Origin: a virus
Taxonomy: Duplodnaviria > Heunggongvirae > Uroviricota > Caudoviricetes
Length of the DNA stretch: 64,000 bases
Reading direction: 5' to 3' (one strand)
Virus record (IMG/VR): IMGVR_UViG_2908567220_000002
Location: 33,901-97,900 of that record
Of the stretch, positions 2,527 to 59,639 are shown piece by piece. Under the pieces are notes generated by a model. It made no database searches and was not told where the DNA came from. It saw nothing but the letters and a program-made list of their open reading frames with translations. A program made the position numbers and the translations under genes. Position 1 is the stretch's first letter, and the number at the start of each line of letters is the position of its first letter.

Positions 2527-2936
2527 AGCCTGCTTCTCCTTGCCTTTCGGCACGTAAGAGGCTAACCTAGATTTGCCGTTCATAGATTGAGCCTCAGATT
2601 AATGTATAAGCGTCTTGCAGGACGCATAATGTTAACTGGGGCTTTTCTCTATCTGCCTTTGGTGTTCATGCTTGAGGCAGATAGCCTCAAGCACCCGCAG
2701 CAATTTTACTTAACTCCCCTTTTCCCACAAATCGTTTTTATCCCTACTGGTAATGTTCTCCCGATGTGGGATTCCCACATTGGAACGAATTCAATCAGTT
2801 AAAGACTCATCAGAATCTCACCTTTCTAAGTGCCCACAGGTGAGGCATTGCAATAAAAATAGCAAACGTGTATAAAAGGAGGTAATGCATGTTTTTCCAG
2901 TCTTATCAATCCATTACTGAGAGTTAAGGGGGCGCC

Positions 2937-3731
2937 GTGGATCGGTGCGGTAATTATTTACTTAAAGATGGTCGCAGTTTAGGACAAGGGAGTTTTGGCG
3001 AAGTATTTAAGGTTGATGTCTATAACTTAACCCAGACCCACATGACCACATATGCTCGCAAATACTTTTCACCTTGCCCGGACTTTGACAAGACCGCTAT
3101 AAAAGAGTTGACTGATTTAAGACAGCGTTTTTTAGTTGAGATCAAAACACAATGCACTCTCAATAGAATAAACTATGATTCAATAGCGCCAATAGTTTTA
3201 TTTAATACAAATGGTGATAAACCTTATTTTGTTATGGAATTGGCAGAGTGTAACTTATATGAAGCCATCCGCAATGGTATGAATTACGCGGAGAGGAAGT
3301 CTGCTGTTACTCAGATTTTAAAAGGAATTATCACCATACATGAAAACAACTATATACATCGTGATTTAAAACCAGGAAACATACTTTATTATGCCGATGG
3401 AAAGTATAAAATATCTGATTTTGGTCTAGTAAAAGACAGAGATACCTTACGGGCCGAAATCAAAACAAAATTTAAGCCTAATCACATGGGCACAGATGGA
3501 TATCGAGCGCCCGAAATACATGATAGCGGTCTTTTTTCTTTTCAAAGCGACATATTTGCAGCAGGTAAAATTATCACTGATATATATCCCACAGAAAGAA
3601 GTGAAAAATTAAAAAGATTGATTGCAAAATGTTGCGCACATTGGCCTGAAGAACGATATCAAAGCACACGGGAGTTACTGGAAGATTTTTTAAAAGTGAC
3701 GGGGGAGGTAAATCATGAAGAACATAATTGA
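2937..3731 (+). CDS. Hanks-type Ser/Thr protein kinase
   Basis: 264 aa; G-loop GQGSFGEV, catalytic loop HRDLKPGN, DFG, GTDGYRAPE; AT-rich; candidate promoter TTGCAA-17-TATAAA upstream. Confidence 0.9.
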   Translation: MDRCGNYLLKDGRSLGQGSFGEVFKVDVYNLTQTHMTTYARKYFSPCPDFDKTAIKELTDLRQRFLVEIKTQCTLNRINYDSIAPIVLFNTNGDKPYFVMELAECNLYEAIRNGMNYAERKSAVTQILKGIITIHENNYIHRDLKPGNILYYADGKYKISDFGLVKDRDTLRAEIKTKFKPNHMGTDGYRAPEIHDSGLFSFQSDIFAAGKIITDIYPTERSEKLKRLIAKCCAHWPEERYQSTRELLEDFLKVTGEVNHEEHN

Positions 3732-4953: not shown

Positions 4954-5310
4954 TTATTCAGTTCTTGATTTTGTCGCCCTGCGTATCCGCGCTTTCGCGT
5001 TACGCTCAATCTGAATTAGCTTTTCTATATTTTTCCGCCTTTCCTGTTCCTCCTGGAGCAATAACCTTACATCATCTGCCAGTCTGGTTTCTCTTTTCGC
5101 CACAGAGAGCATCCAGTCAAATGGCTCCACAACTGCACCGCAGATTTTACAGCGGACCTGACGCTCTTTTTCGTCAACCCGGACAGAGGCGTGATGGCAA
5201 TATGGTCTTTCCGATGGCTCATAAAGAAAATTAACCTGATTACGAGGGTCATCCTCTTTTGCCGGAAATAAAACGATATTGCTTAACTCATCTTCTGGTT
5301 TTATTTCCAT
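4954..5310 (-). CDS. Hypothetical protein with Cys/His cluster
   Basis: Likely start MEIKPEDE (tracked ORF 4954..5391); CHH...CKIC motif then basic coiled-coil-like tail. Confidence 0.45.
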   Translation of the reverse strand: MEIKPEDELSNIVLFPAKEDDPRNQVNFLYEPSERPYCHHASVRVDEKERQVRCKICGAVVEPFDWMLSVAKRETRLADDVRLLLQEEQERRKNIEKLIQIERNAKARIRRATKSRTE

Positions 5311-6007
5311 GCTCCTCTCCTTTGATGCGAATGCCAGCGGCGCGTGGCACATTAACTTCCACGATGCGCACAGTTGGTTTGTACATCTCAATCGCTGTCA
5401 GCCAGTCAGCTCCTGTCATGCGTTTTTCCGCATCGCCATTAGTCCACTGAACCGGCACACCAATAGCCTTCATCGCGATTTCTATTTCCCCGGCAATGGC
5501 GCTTTTTCCGCAACCAGTAAAACCAGATACAACGACAAGAACTTCGCCTTTGGCTGGTTTTATTTCCCGTGCTTCCAGTTCTGCTATGCGCTTACTTCCA
5601 TCCGCGATTACTCCCTCGTAATACTCACGCTGCTCGTTGAGTTTTGATTTTGCTGCTTCAAGCTCAACGCGCAGCTTCCCTACCGTTAGCGCAATCTCCT
5701 CGTTCTCCTGGTCGCGGCGTTTTATGTATTGCTGGTTTCTTTCCCGTTCATCCAGCAGTGCCAGTACGGTAGCCGGGTTAGCCTCTGCTATAAATGCTGC
5801 GTTTGCATAAGCCTGAGCATCTGTTTCAACCAGGCAGTTAGCATGACATTCTGCAATCACGCCACCGGGTTCTCCTTTCCATTTTTGACAAACAAAAACT
5901 CCTGTTAAATTGCCGTACTGGTTAACAGATGTATGCCCTACGATGTAGCTTCCTTTAGTTGCTTTTTCTGCCTTGGCACGCAGTACCTGATAGTCAATCT
6001 TGCTCAC
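5288..6007 (-). CDS. Ead/Ea22-like family protein (coiled-coil), tentative
   Basis: 239 aa starting MSKIDYQVLRAKAEKAT...; central coiled-coil region; typical nin-region gene. Confidence 0.45.
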   Translation of the reverse strand: MSKIDYQVLRAKAEKATKGSYIVGHTSVNQYGNLTGVFVCQKWKGEPGGVIAECHANCLVETDAQAYANAAFIAEANPATVLALLDERERNQQYIKRRDQENEEIALTVGKLRVELEAAKSKLNEQREYYEGVIADGSKRIAELEAREIKPAKGEVLVVVSGFTGCGKSAIAGEIEIAMKAIGVPVQWTNGDAEKRMTGADWLTAIEMYKPTVRIVEVNVPRAAGIRIKGEEHGNKTRR

Positions 6008-9716: not shown

Positions 9717-9863
9717 ATGAACGAAACAGAATTAAAACACGTTATCGCTCTGCTTCTGGAGGATGCAAAACGCCTCCAGCAACTGGAACCAAATGCAGGC
9801 ACTGAAGCCCGCATCTGGCTGGCATTGTACGCTATTGAGTCAGGTCGTGATGATGAAGGTTAA
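9717..9863 (+). CDS. YdfB-like small protein (tentative)
   Basis: 48 aa MNETELKHVIALLLEDAKRLQQLEPNAGTEARIWLALYAIESGRDDEG; hand-translated, below track cutoff. Confidence 0.55.
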   Translation: MNETELKHVIALLLEDAKRLQQLEPNAGTEARIWLALYAIESGRDDEG

Positions 9864-10144
9864 GCATCATCTAAGTTTTTTACATAGCGCCCATTAGATT
9901 CGGTAACAAGAACACCGGGATTTTTCTTAACTTTTGAGGCCACTGATTCAGCAAGGTCAGCAACAGATTCTTTGTCTTCATTCTTGCTTGAATATATATA
10001 TTCGGCATTAGGAAGACGGTAGGTGTTCCCTAAAGAGGTTGTAATCGTTCTGGAGAATCCCTTTGCTTCCATTCGTTCATGAAGCTTATCGTAATCAGCG
10101 GAACTGGAATCGCGAAGTTCGATCCTGACTGTAAATTTTGCCAT
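9860..10144 (-). CDS. Hypothetical protein encoded antisense to the early-left operon
   Basis: Start MAKFTVRIELRD with GGAGGA SD 4 nt upstream. Confidence 0.5.
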   Translation of the reverse strand: MAKFTVRIELRDSSSADYDKLHERMEAKGFSRTITTSLGNTYRLPNAEYIYSSKNEDKESVADLAESVASKVKKNPGVLVTESNGRYVKNLDDA

Positions 10145-10159
10145 TTTATCCTCCATTTA

Positions 10160-10455
10160 GGTTCTGGGTTAGAAATGGAGACCAATACGGGGCTACGTGT
10201 GGTCGTGCGCCGGACACGGATAAGAATCCGGCACTGACAGTTTACTGAAAGGATATTTCCCTGAAAAGTCAGGGCATAACACGAAAGCGTACGGCGAAGG
10301 CCTTCACCTATGAGGCTTGTCGTTAATTTCTTCGACCGTGCGCTTCCGGTTGTGGCACTCCGCGAAATGGCGCGGCGGTAAGTATGGCGGGGTTATTCCT
10401 TCCCCCGTTGAGGACACCGGGTTGTCAGGTTGACCATACGCTTAAGTGACAACCC
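10160..10455 (+). other. Conserved non-coding element (also upstream of DicF in prophage B at 59100-59410)
   Basis: ~290 bp highly similar between prophages with small indels, no conserved ORF; inverted repeats GGGTTGTCA / TGACAACCC. Confidence 0.5.
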
Positions 10456-10504
10456 CGCCATAACTCATACTGCTATAGATATATGGGGACTAACCGGAGG
10501 AAAA

Positions 10505-10726
10505 ATGATAGTTCAATGCACAGACGGGAATAATAAGCTGCTCTGGTCATACGATACCGTCAGCCAGAAACACATAATGAATATGACTTTTATAAAGGAC
10601 GGTACTCAACAAAAAATCATTACCGCCCTTGCAAGTGCATTAACTCAGGCGACAAGCCAAATTCTGCTATCTGATAACGTTAATGGAGTATCTGATATTG
10701 GCTCGATGACCGGGAGGGAGTGCTAA
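10505..10726 (+). CDS. Small hypothetical protein (73 aa)
   Basis: GGAGG SD 5 nt before ATG; MIVQCTDGNNKLLWSYDTVSQKH...; lies in the segment that replaces DicF. Confidence 0.4.
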   Translation: MIVQCTDGNNKLLWSYDTVSQKHIMNMTFIKDGTQQKIITALASALTQATSQILLSDNVNGVSDIGSMTGREC

Positions 10727-10930
10727 TACAACATTCCAGTAACCCGAGTGGGGCACGGTAATATTGGCAGGGAATCGTTCATAGAAACCGCCGTAATAGG
10801 TAAAACGCCCGCCCCGCTTGAAAGCCTGGTAATTTGAATCATCCATTAATAAAACATTAATCTGGTGTGAACATTGAACCCTGACAAGGTCACCATCATT
10901 CATGTGTTCACGACTATGTATATGGGACAT
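10667..10930 (-). CDS. Small hypothetical protein (88 aa), convergent with and overlapping the preceding ORF by 60 nt
   Basis: AGGAG SD then ATG; MSHIHSREHMNDGDLVRVQCSHQINVLLMDDSNYQAFKRGGRFTYYGG... Confidence 0.5.
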   Translation of the reverse strand: MSHIHSREHMNDGDLVRVQCSHQINVLLMDDSNYQAFKRGGRFTYYGGFYERFPANITVPHSGYWNVVLALPPGHRANIRYSINVIR

Positions 10931-11456
10931 AAACACTCCTTTTTACTGTGGAAAGCTAAATCATATCACGGTCTATGAAGTAAAAAGTGAATTTCGTGAT
11001 GCGGTGAATGCGGCTCAGCGCACGCAGAACAGTTAAAAACACAAGTGTTATGGGTGAATCATCCGGCGTTAATTGCTAACTGGTTAACGTCACCTGGAGG
11101 CACCAGGCACCGCATCACAAAGTTCACTTAGGTGATGAAAGGTAGAGAAAATGTTGAATGTAGCTATTGAAAACCAGAACGGGTGGAATTATAGTGCACC
11201 TGCACCTCATAAAACGGGTGCCGGGCGTGGAAACCCGATGTTCACTAACGCGCATAACCGCGCTCAGGCGGTTTTTTTATGCGTAATGCACAGCCACATT
11301 CAGATTATGGTGGGACGTGCAGGGCAGCCGCAAGGCTGGCCGGGTTCGTTAGTGACCGGTATTTCCACCCCTGTACGTCTCACCACCCTTATGGTCGTGG
11401 AAAACCTTGGTGGTGAGTTAATCAAATTCACTAACGAGGCTGCTATCATGGCTACT

Positions 11457-12002
11457 ATCCCTACCCTTTCTCAACCTGACGTAACCATCGAAAATGGTCG
11501 CGCTGTCACTACGTCTGTTGCGATCGCCGAGTTCTTTGGCAAACGCCACGACAATGTTATTCAAAAAATAAAATTACTGGATTGCTCCCCTGAATTCACT
11601 GCCCTTAATTTTAAGGTGAGCGAATACACCGACTCAACCGGGCGCAAACTCCCTATGTACCAAATCACCAAAAACGGCTTCGTTTTCCTGGTGATGGGCT
11701 TCACGGGCAAAAAAGCCGCAGCTTTCAAGGAAGCCTACATCGCTGAATTCGATCGCATGGAGGCAGAGTTGTACCAGCTTAATACCACTACCACAGACAA
11801 AATAATTCCTGGTGATGGTCGCACTCTCGTTGTTCACTTCGACGAACGCGGCAATATCAAATTCACCGAAACCGTTCCTGACGGCGCTCTCGTCTGTACT
11901 CTGGATACTTTCCGCTTTTATCTGGAGAAGCAGGGGTGGACTCTTGTAAACAGGAGCGCAATTAAAAATATGACCGTCGAGCAGTTGCTGAGTATTAAAT
12001 AG
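11457..12002 (+). CDS. Rha-family phage regulatory protein (antirepressor-like)
   Basis: Start MATIPTLSQPDVTIENGRAVTTSVAIAEFFGKRHDNVIQKI matches Rha N-terminal domain; tracked ORF 11151..12002 extends upstream. Confidence 0.65.
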   Translation: MPTLSQPDVTIENGRAVTTSVAIAEFFGKRHDNVIQKIKLLDCSPEFTALNFKVSEYTDSTGRKLPMYQITKNGFVFLVMGFTGKKAAAFKEAYIAEFDRMEAELYQLNTTTTDKIIPGDGRTLVVHFDERGNIKFTETVPDGALVCTLDTFRFYLEKQGWTLVNRSAIKNMTVEQLLSIK

Positions 12003-52089: not shown

Positions 52090-52245
52090 TTACTCCTCAG
52101 GTTCGTAAGCTGTGAAGACAGCGACCTCCGTCTGCCCGGTTCGGATTCGTACCTCGCAGAGGTCTTTCCTCGTTACCAGTGCCGTCACTATGACGGTTAA
52201 ACAGATGACGATCAGGGCGATTAGCATCGCCTTTTGCTGCTTCAT
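52090..52245 (-). CDS. hok: Hok/Gef family type I toxin
   Basis: 51 aa MKQQKAMLIALIVICLTVIVTALVTRKDLCEVRIRTGQTEVAVFTAYEPEE. Confidence 0.9.
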   Translation of the reverse strand: MKQQKAMLIALIVICLTVIVTALVTRKDLCEVRIRTGQTEVAVFTAYEPEE

Positions 52246-52456
52246 AGCCTGCTTCTCCTTGCCTTTCGGCACGTAAGAGGCTAACCTACGTGTGTAGAGC
52301 ATAGATATGGCCTCAGATTAATGTTAAGCGTCTTGCCGGACGCGTAATGTTAACTGGGGCTTTTCTCTATCTGCCTTTTGGTGTTCATGCCTGAGACAGA
52401 TAGCCTCAAGCACCCGCTGCAATTCTACTTAACTCTCCTTTTCCCGCAAACCGTTT

Positions 52457-58503: not shown

Positions 58504-58824
58504 ATGGAATTTAAAGATTTACCAGTACCATTCCAGGAAATGGCATCGAATGTGGTTCGCTCTCAACTGGCGACTCTTGACCTGAGTACCGTAGAAAAAG
58601 AAACCATCGACAATATATCCGGTAACGTACGCCGAGCCTTTATCGGGCTGTACGAAGAGAAGCAGCTCTCTGATAACCAGGATTTACATGAAAAATACTT
58701 CCTGGATCTAATGGACATCATTGATAAGGGGTTTGGCTTGTTAATGAAAAAGAAAGGGATTCGAATAGAACCCCTTGAAAATTACTTTGCAACAAAAAGC
58801 ATTAATTCTTTTGATTCAAAATAA
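58504..58824 (+). CDS. Hypothetical protein (106 aa)
   Basis: Start MEFKDLPVPFQEMASNVV with GAGG SD; replaces the YdfB-like gene of prophage A. Confidence 0.45.
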   Translation: MEFKDLPVPFQEMASNVVRSQLATLDLSTVEKETIDNISGNVRRAFIGLYEEKQLSDNQDLHEKYFLDLMDIIDKGFGLLMKKKGIRIEPLENYFATKSINSFDSK

Positions 58825-59077
58825 GAGAATTAATTACAGACTTAACATGCTCTTTCTCATGATTGAAGCTCTCATGATTGAAAGTGCCGGGTTGAAGCGA
58901 GTCGATATAATCAACAAGACTCTGTCGTACGACTTCATTTTTATCCATAACAGATGCAAGAAATGAAATTGCTAAAAGAGTTATATCACTACGCGCCGCA
59001 GCATGTTGCAATGCTTTATCAAAATTATTAATCTGGCGTATCAGGGAGTTAATGATTTCATCATTTTCAGTCGACAT
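58802..59077 (-). CDS. Hypothetical protein (91 aa) antisense to the early-left operon, convergent with the preceding gene
   Basis: Start MSTENDEIINSLIRQINNFD with AGGAGGG SD; tracked ORF 58802..59290. Confidence 0.45.
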   Translation of the reverse strand: MSTENDEIINSLIRQINNFDKALQHAAARSDITLLAISFLASVMDKNEVVRQSLVDYIDSLQPGTFNHESFNHEKEHVKSVINSLILNQKN

Positions 59078-59411
59078 TTCACCCTCCTGAGGGTTGGTGA
59101 TTAAGGAGTTCTCCACGGGTGAGGTGGAGTGCGTGCGCCGGACACGGGTGAGCATCCGGCACTGACAGTTTACTGAAAGGATATTTCCCTGAAAAGTCAG
59201 ACCATAACGCGAAAGCGCACGGCGAGGTAGCTGGTTCATAGATAGCCTGTCGTTAAATTTTCGTCGACCGTGCGCTTCCGGTTGTGGCAATCCGCGAAAT
59301 GGCGCGGCGGTAAGTATGGCGGGGTTATTCCTTCCCCCGTTGAGGACACCGGGTTGTCAGGTTGACCATACGCTTAAGTGACAACCCCGCTGCAACGCCC
59401 TCTGTTATCAA

Positions 59412-59468
59412 TTTTCTGGTGACGTTTGGCGGTATCAGTTTTACTCCGTGACTGCTCTGCCGCCCTTT
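59412..59468 (+). ncRNA. dicF: DicF small RNA
   Basis: TTTCTGGTGACGTTTGGCGGTATCAGTTTTACTCCGTGACTGCTCTGCCGCCCTTTTT matches DicF as recalled, including terminator hairpin and U-tail. Confidence 0.8.
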
Positions 59469-59639
59469 TTAAAGTGAATTTTGTAATGTGGTGAATGCGG
59501 CTGAGCGCACGCGGAACAGTTAAAACCAAAAACAGTGTTATGGGTGGATTCTCTGTATCCGGCGTTAATTGTTAACTGGTTAACGTCACCTGGAGGCACC
59601 AGGCACCGCATCACAAAATTCATTGTTGAGGACGCGATA

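Follow-up and report, generated by a model that had tools for sequence, protein, structure and literature searches.

What is the function of the conserved non-coding element, roughly 290 nt long, that stands upstream of the DicF position in both prophages of a 64,000-nt stretch of viral DNA (the whole stretch analyzed, hereafter the window)? A sequence-only reading had noticed two similar segments, here copies A and B, and had taken them for a structured RNA leader, a processing platform for DicF, or an independent RNA element. It had named an Rfam scan and a covariation analysis as checks, and a short conserved peptide open reading frame (ORF) as the finding that would explain the conservation otherwise.

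The Two Copies in the Window

The likeness of the two segments is borne out: B 59129-59390 and A 10201-10458 are homologous, with 233 of 262 alignment columns identical (89%), including 87 of 96 in the 5' block, 129 of 131 in the 3' block, and 17 of 35, with four gaps, in a variable patch (B 59225-59259). This similarity lies far above chance. A 312-nt query has matches in 4326 of the 5426 complete E. coli genomes (~80%), at up to eight places per genome and almost always in unannotated sequence. Conservation begins near 59125 in B and 10197 in A, instead of at the boundaries proposed earlier (59100 and 10160). Unrelated small minus-strand genes adjoin the 5' edge (58802-59077 at B and 9860-10156 at A), still other genes stand there in other loci, and each of these 5'-edge genes has a hairpin over its Shine-Dalgarno sequence.

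No second, diverged copy was found in a right-hand early (PR-type) operon: each prophage in the window has a single copy, and so does the complete genome of phage cdtI. Two sok (hok/sok) loci on the minus strand (2521-2696 and 52240-52415) lie ~49.7 kb apart, which parallels the spacing of the element copies (~49 kb); the window therefore holds two colinear prophage left arms.

Distribution of the Element

In K-12 MG1655, the element makes up the untranslated region that separates ydfC from dicF in the dicBF operon of Qin, a region that appears in the literature merely as "a long untranslated region" or the "3' UTR of ydfC" (PMC5069750; PMC9438474). In a phage-genome search, the 3' ~115 nt were found by themselves in phage cdtI, Stx2c phages, 2H10, Salmonella phage F1055, and phage pPE4, and P1 and P7 have this 3' domain at 77-82% identity. 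Judging from these partial matches, the element is composite, consisting of a 5' module with a long hairpin (P0) and a separate 3' domain of ~120 nt. Further copies came to light through pattern scans, in Citrobacter, Serratia symbiotica, Erwinia tracheiphila, Trabulsiella, Izhakiella, E. albertii, E. ruysiae, and Shigella and also in viral and metagenome contigs. Three metagenome-assembled contigs labeled Bacillota, Veillonella, and Collinsella (L137, L138, and L141) contain copies identical to those of E. coli or P1, which suggests binning contamination. DicF itself is present in a record named "Aeromonas phage AP1" (H150).

The 3' domain was found in 61 phage records and DicF in 22, and a DicF-specific domain was rejected on these counts. 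The Rfam scan (Rfam 15) returned no family on either copy (59100-59411; 10160-10470), at the gathering threshold or at E ≤ 10, and none on the homologous regions of P1, cdtI, Erwinia, and F1055. The literature found on the element nowhere describes its structure or function, although an older account may stand in the original DicF, P1-genome, or HK639 papers. Literature searches connecting dicF or the P1 ban operon with antitermination gave no relevant result.

Structure of the 3' Domain

The 3' domain occupies 59281-59396 in copy B and 10349-10464 in copy A, on the plus strand in both, where a covariance model of the domain (R1) scores 143.8 and 143.0 bits, respectively. This ~120-nt core comprises the helices P1, P2, P2a, P3, and P4 and a pseudoknot. 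P1 (GUUGUGGY/RCCACAAC) pairs 59281-59288 with 59389-59396 in B and 10349-10356 with 10457-10464 in A (GCCAUAAC, with one G-U pair). P2 pairs CCGCG (59292-59296) with CGCGG (59303-59307) and lies within 10360-10375 in A, and P2a pairs GGU (59309-59311) with ACC (59348-59350). Directly 3' of P2a, a GYAUGG consensus forms the pseudoknot with CCAURC inside the P4 loop (GUAUGG 59314-59319 with CCAUAC 59366-59371 in B; 10382-10387 with 10434-10439 in A). P3 (59320-59324 with 59335-59339 in B; within 10388-10407 in A) is a hairpin of free sequence (CGGGG/CCCCG, CUGGGG/CUCCAG, CAGGUG/CACCUG, CCCGGG/CCCGGG, and others). P4 (59351-59359 with 59379-59387 in B, GGGUUGUCA/UGACAACCC; within 10419-10455 in A) carries the near-invariant loop GGUUGACCAUACGCUUAAG, with the consensus GGUUGACCAURCGCYURAG.

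In the metagenome sample, the loop GGUUGACCAU is intact in all but 3 of 37 unique true copies, and one divergent metagenome copy (L281) has entirely new P1, P3, and P4 sequences with the loop and junctions unchanged. On the aligned sequences, the core is a compact pseudoknotted fold of four to five helices with near-invariant unpaired nucleotides. One of the inverted repeats pointed out in the sequence-only reading, GGGTTGTCA/TGACAACCC, is real and corresponds to P4. The other, GGCGGGG/CCCCGCC, does not hold as described, since GGCGGGG pairs with a nearby CCCCG in P3 and the distal CCCCGCC is present only in copy A.

Covariation, Strand, and Coding Potential

Every helix is supported by covariation, in agreement with the earlier suggestion of a structured RNA. 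Among 76 distinct sequences, in an alignment that was fitted to the model and hence leans towards structure, 95.9% of the helix cells pair, compared with 33-55% when partners are slid, and compensatory changes on both sides are seen in 18 of 36 pairs, compared with 5.7 in shuffles and a level reached by 0 of 500 shuffles. An alignment of 31 sequences made with MAFFT agrees, with 94.8% of cells paired (≤55% slid) and double changes at 10 pairs (2.4 shuffled). The pair states in the 76 sequences are U-A 71, C-G 3, U-G 2, and C-A never for the pseudoknot and U-A 73, C-G 2, and U-G 1 for P2a; there is a sampling bias here, since the pseudoknot strand and a portion of the loop were preset in the first two pattern scans. 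In the metagenome scan, the pattern preset only P2 and the CGG after it, and this sample added an independent C-G change in the pseudoknot and a second C-G change in P2a; the pattern is GC-rich, and about two thirds of its unique matches are chance matches in high-GC contigs.

Helix cells contain 79 G-U and 36 A-C combinations, and the domain has the orientation of the operon in every annotated case; therefore, the RNA is on the plus strand. Both the RNA structure and the transcribed strand are thereby established, and the comparisons indicate that this structured RNA family is real, unannotated, and absent from Rfam.

The conservation could otherwise be due to a short protein gene or to a functional site in the DNA itself, for instance an operator, a site of recombination, or an origin. 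Taken literally, the earlier statement that no ORF of more than 25 codons is conserved fails, because A and B have ORFs of 31-38 codons in common on both strands: a minus-strand ORF of 37 codons with a GTG start (59236-59349; 10304-10417) and a plus-strand ORF of 31/38 codons. In one genome, moreover, a 54-aa hypothetical protein is annotated over the 5' part. The statement does stand for the homologues, in which no reading frame is conserved: indels place the P3-spanning distance in all three classes modulo 3 (37, 28, and 11 of the 76 sequences), and the minus-strand ORF is shortened to 2-7 codons in 33 of 67 sequences. Protein coding was rejected on these frame shifts and truncations. Furthermore, the helix substitutions are compensatory, G-U exceeds A-C as given above, and no gene is annotated here in K-12 and most RefSeq entries, so that a gene or DNA site in place of an RNA appears very improbable.

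Operon Context and the Terminator

The domain is oriented with the repressor-controlled early operon in Qin, E. coli SK1144, mEp460, F1055, pPE4, an Stx2c phage, and cdtI, and it lies downstream of the repressor gene in Qin, mEp460, F1055, pPE4, and the Stx2c phages. Genes around copy B encode a repressor-like protein, YdfA-like and other small proteins, DicB, YdfD, and an exonuclease. In P1 (L003), ~30 nt separate the annotated -10 of the C1-controlled Pban (2953-2958) from the domain (2988-3103), and the P7 copy likewise stands directly behind Pban. In cdtI (L004), a promoter with 11 of 12 matches (2184-2211) follows the cI terminator, and the domain (2499-2616) lies ~290 nt downstream. In Qin-type prophages, the domain stands ~1 kb into the operon without a promoter of its own, and a simple promoter scan detected no consensus promoter inside the element on either strand.

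In copy B, the domain is followed after 17 nt by the DicF sRNA (59414-59465, plus strand; Rfam RF00039, 76.7 bits), which together with its intrinsic terminator spans 59414-59470 (GGCGG...CCGCC and UUUUU, a hairpin of -22.2 kcal/mol and a T run). RF00039 matches only at these positions of B, with nothing within 59100-59411 or 10160-10470. Across 16 downstream sequence types, 15 have a hairpin of -13 to -32 kcal/mol with a T run 30-115 nt after the domain, and the stem GGCGG...CCGCC is homologous across most of them. The sole exception is copy A of the window, where an ORF stands instead of a terminator because DicF is replaced by two small ORFs; the sequence-only reading had correctly described the element as retained in A although DicF is replaced. 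These two ORFs, of 73 aa and, on the minus strand, 89 aa, begin a region (10505-12002) that continues with isrK (11202-11278), a C4 antisense RNA (11303-11390), and an Ant/Rha-like ORF (11151-12002), of which the annotated 5' part overlaps isrK and the C4 antisense RNA.

In cdtI-type loci, a second long hairpin lies beyond the first terminator (L004 ~2676-2775; also L006, L134, L139, L144, and L145); its strands resemble X and Y, the strands of P0 (ACAAAACAGAGAAGAGCA ... TGTTCTTCTCTGTTTTGTGG), and it could be either an additional terminator or a site for RNase III. Another non-coding block is conserved behind DicF in B (59477-59617) and ahead of isrK in A (~10970-11130). It contains GTTAACTGGTTAAC and CACCTGGAGGCACCAGGCAC and matches Rfam STnc100 below the gathering score, with 38.6 bits in the window and 33.4 bits in the P1 ban operon (L003 4342-4461). 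The 5' end of the cdtI-type PL leader (L004 ~2255-2400; TTTGGTTGTAACACGGCGTATGGCACATGCGTCGTTAGCGGTCTGG...) recurs in P1 between tRNA-Ile and ban (L003 ~5270-5400). This leader module is unannotated, has no Rfam match, and is not matched by our model of the put RNAs, although its CGGCG...CAUGCGUCG resembles put stem I.

The gene dicB lies downstream of the DicF terminator. With a strong terminator in front, read-through is needed for the prophages to express dicB, recE, and xis/int and for P1 to express its tRNAs and ban. Read-through at the DicF terminator is in fact a known event: DicF species have been reported both from termination and from read-through transcripts, and RNase E is reported to generate the 5' end and RNase III a longer form (PMC5069750; PMC9438474).

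The domain might be a processing or stability platform for DicF-family sRNAs that directs RNase E or RNase III cleavage or protects ends. In its favor, DicF or a DicF-like RNA with the homologous terminator follows in most loci, and the ~22-bp helix of P0 would be a plausible RNase III substrate. However, a DicF-like RNA and its terminator are kept in the domain-less phage phiSTEC1589 (L150) and in Rac-SA53 (L189), copy A keeps the domain without any sRNA, and the domain outnumbers DicF in phage records. The sRNA seeds vary while the domain sequence is constant, the RNA downstream in P1 has a different terminator, and in P1 and cdtI the domain is near the transcript start, with no upstream mRNA. 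A platform specifically for DicF, as the sequence-only reading had it, is not supported in view of the domain-less variants, P1, cdtI, and copy A, and we consider the wider version of this function unlikely as well.

Another possibility is an independent trans-acting RNA: a stable species of ~120-250 nt, comprising the domain by itself or together with the hairpin downstream, would be bound to a protein of host or phage origin, such as the polymerase, an RNA chaperone, or a defence factor. The promoter-to-terminator unit of P1 would yield a discrete RNA of ~180 nt, the compact closed fold with its invariant loops would suit such a role, and lambdoid PL operons and the P1 ban operon exchange the unit as a module. 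Against this stand the Qin-type copies, ~1 kb into the operon and with no promoter of their own, and the literature on the locus, in which no discrete transcript is reported. We assign a low probability to this function.

The 5' Part and an Alternative Pairing

The 5' module of copy B (59125-59202, plus strand) is predicted to form two hairpins, H1 (59137-59160; GCCGGA...UCCGGC) and H2 (59162-59200; CUGAC...GUCAG), with counterparts in copy A at 10209-10232 and 10234-10272; both vary too little for a covariation test. The module is kept in N-encoding phages without the 3' domain (L150), and a different module takes its place at other loci, which makes it separable from the core.

P0 follows in the minimum-free-energy fold as a long hairpin (59203-59288, plus strand) with a helix of ~22 bp. 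It is formed by strand X (59203-59225; CAUAACGCGAAAGCGCACGGCGA) and strand Y (59264-59288; UCGACCGUGCGCUUCCGGUUGUGGC), with a variable tip (59226-59263) that corresponds to the divergent patch between A and B. In copy A, P0 spans 10275-10356 (X 10275-10297; Y 10332-10356) and has a different tip. A change between the copies within P0 (GCGCACGG to GCGUACGG) gives a U-G pair on the plus strand and would be A-C on the minus strand. X and Y remain complementary at 15-19 of 21 positions, with other sequences, in cdtI, Citrobacter, Erwinia, Izhakiella, and Trabulsiella, and also in L281, where both sequences differ. In Shigella flexneri, two deletion variants (L060 5225-5342 and L136 1461-1575) have X fused to P2 (CACAAC joined to GCGAAATGG) and are without P0 and strand Y; these deletions likely arose by recombination between two CGCGAAA repeats.

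Since the GUUGUGG of Y is also the 5' strand of P1, the P0-extended fold and P1 are mutually exclusive. The two folds are predicted to be isoenergetic (-102.9 and -102.5 kcal/mol), with less than 1 kcal/mol between them in both copies.

The element could be viewed as a conditional attenuator that senses a ligand, a protein of the host or the phage, or the translational or transcriptional state, and in which the choice between the P0-extended and the P1-closed fold decides terminator use, that is, a DicF-type sRNA only or the full early-left operon. Y can pair with upstream X or downstream Z at nearly equal cost, as just described; in L281, X and Z are direct repeats, each complementary to Y over ~17 nt; the invariant unpaired nucleotides would suit a binding pocket; and a terminator follows in all but one of the downstream types. 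On the other hand, no overlap between an antiterminator and a terminator is visible, because the terminator hairpins are self-contained and lie 10-100 nt from Z across variable sequence. Both P0 and P1 are absent from the P1 and P7 phage copies, copy A has no terminator, and no Rfam riboswitch matches even at E ≤ 10. We regard attenuation as rather unlikely.

Mutual Exclusion With N and a Proposed Function

Relatives without the domain provide a natural comparison. In phiSTEC1589-Stx1c (L150), the 5' module, P0, and Y are present, and Y (GGUUGUG) is joined directly to AAUAACAAC, followed by the DicF-like terminator; exactly P2-P4 are missing, and P1 is closed by a short loop. Upstream of this junction, the phage encodes N. 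Using one exact 20-mer across the junction, we retrieved 38 viral contigs, and 25 domain-less loci with enough flank were scored for N on the same strand within 6 kb upstream (the three tblastn queries being the N proteins of phiSTEC and lambda and a 933W-like one from L183). N is encoded upstream of 22 of these 25 loci, in at least three families, and upstream of none of the 108 domain-bearing loci, as detected with these three families and an arginine-rich-motif heuristic that other N families could escape. The motif scan of the domain-bearing loci flagged only DicA-type repressors. When loci are clustered by upstream architecture, N is present in 5 of 7 domain-less and 0 of 30 domain-bearing clusters (Fisher p = 4.8e-5); as the junction was found by one exact 20-mer, it probably represents a single deletion, and the association with N is partly linkage by descent. 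No N homologue was found in the complete cdtI genome, with its one domain copy, and no N homologue or N-like protein in the 64-kb window.

Three of the 25 domain-less loci have no N (L167, L168, and L188, of DicA/Rac type), and in the N-less Rac-SA53 (L189) the frame and the terminator are present without the domain; therefore, the domain is not indispensable in such Rac-type phages. The Rac-SA53 frame lies upstream of kilR (~2890-3090) and contains X, P0, Y, Z, a DicF-like hairpin terminator, and an STnc100-like block, which implies an unannotated DicF-like RNA in Rac-type prophages.

The exclusivity with N bears on each of the functions considered above. It is left unexplained by a platform for DicF-family sRNAs, it would be a coincidence or the result of linkage if the RNA acted in trans, and the absence of the domain from N-encoding phages is not explained by attenuation alone. 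The genomic position of the domain, the terminator that follows it, and its exclusivity with N are established, and because the domain precedes terminators and no N is found upstream, we propose that it functions in the control of termination, by read-through. Specifically, the domain might represent a new class of cis-acting antitermination RNA, a reading to which we give an even chance on the sequence evidence. We infer that the domain causes the read-through, that it is bound by RNA polymerase or a host factor, and that pairing among X, Y, and Z modulates it.

The element would thus be an untranslated RNA of the phage early (PL-type) operon, and its domain would act in cis on the polymerase that has just made it. 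This polymerase would then pass the following intrinsic terminator (that of DicF or a DicF-like RNA, or the one at ~+180 of the P1 ban operon), as with put of HK022 or the EAR of Bacillus, and it might also be assisted past additional terminators and across the long stretch of untranslated, Rho-exposed RNA that follows. As a result, kil/dicB, the recombination genes, and xis-int, or the tRNAs and ban in P1, could be expressed without N protein, while polymerases that do terminate would give rise to a DicF-family small RNA.

It is possible to go further, although here we put our confidence somewhat below an even chance, and to regard the domain as an antiterminator, unrelated to put, that modifies the E. 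coli RNA polymerase and substitutes for N in most lambdoid prophages of E. coli, including K-12 Qin, and in the P1 ban operon, made conditional by an X/Y/Z switch that sets "DicF-type sRNA only" or "full early-left operon." The near-isoenergetic alternative pairing would be as compatible with a regulated switch as with a constitutive antiterminator. Further points against antitermination, besides the N-less Rac-type phages, are that window copy A precedes an ORF, not a terminator, and that the domain has no similarity to put RNAs, either by covariance models in both directions or by blastn.

Processive antitermination by RNA only is known from very few systems (put and EAR). If the proposed function is correct, the domain would constitute a second, structurally unrelated class and open a new approach to the reprogramming of RNA polymerase by nascent RNA, with such an RNA present in phage P1 and in ~80% of E. 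coli genomes, K-12 among them. An explanation would also be at hand for how lambdoid prophages without N express toxic or recombination genes (dicB, kil, recE, and xis/int) behind a strong terminator, how transcription is apportioned between DicF-family sRNAs and downstream mRNAs, and how transcription in P1 gets to ban across 2.6 kb that is for the most part untranslated. Whatever the mechanism, a pseudoknotted RNA family that is supported by covariation, missing from Rfam, and located in textbook loci merits description.

Comparison With Known Systems

In phages HK022 and HK639, put is a cis-acting RNA that lets polymerase pass terminators (PMC9378689); it needs no protein factors and depends on the beta' zinc-binding domain. 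Like put, the domain is located in an early operon, downstream of a repressor-controlled promoter and in operon orientation, with terminators following, and domain-bearing phages resemble put-bearing phages in having no N. The sizes are also comparable, as HK639 is annotated with a single putL-like RNA of 126 nt at the same position in the left operon. By contrast, the domain is formed by P1-P4 and a pseudoknot, and put by two stem-loops (compared here as the consensus GAACGGC...GUCGG...GGCGGGUUCAGGAUGA...CAAU). A put covariance model (R2; built from three put RNAs, which it recovers at 74-97 bits) gave no match at E ≤ 10 in the window and in 14 element-bearing or related loci, R1 gave none on the HK022 and HK639 put loci, and blastn gave nothing; homology with put was thus rejected. 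Only short motifs are common to HK022 putL (L005 28239-28312, minus strand) and the domain (window 59292-59375), namely GCGCGGCGG, UCAGGNUGA, and, in the P1-phage version of the domain, ACCAUGCG, and their order differs. These common motifs could be due to chance or could be convergent polymerase-binding motifs.

The domain takes the same operon position as lambda N/nutL, upstream of the early-left genes (kil, exo/recE, xis, and int), and N-encoding relatives have the same frame of 5' module, P0, DicF-like terminator, and STnc100-like block without the domain. Unlike the lambda N/nut system, domain-bearing loci encode no N (0/108, as above) and have no boxB-like 15-nt hairpin. As for boxA (CGCUCUUA/UGCUCUUUA) and a possible recruitment of Nus factors through it, UGCUCU(C/U)U precedes P1 in the non-Qin relatives and UGCGCUU in Qin; the boxA-like UGCUCU in strand Y is short, is paired with X in P0, and is without the 3' half of boxA.

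Relative to DicF, the domain is upstream, distinct, and more widespread in phage records (61 and 22, respectively), and copy A, P1, and cdtI have it with no DicF; the P1 annotation marks only the adjacent stretch as a "dicF-like region." The element as a whole is the "long untranslated region" of the K-12 dicBF operon, between ydfC and dicF (PMC5069750).

A further parallel comes from outside the enterobacterial phages. The eps-associated RNA (EAR) of Bacillus was reportedly described by Irnov and Winkler in 2010 as an intra-operon RNA of processive antitermination. Like EAR, the domain is a structured RNA of ~120 nt that includes a pseudoknot, stands within an operon, and precedes intrinsic terminators; it differs in clade and sequence, with no Rfam match in the region.
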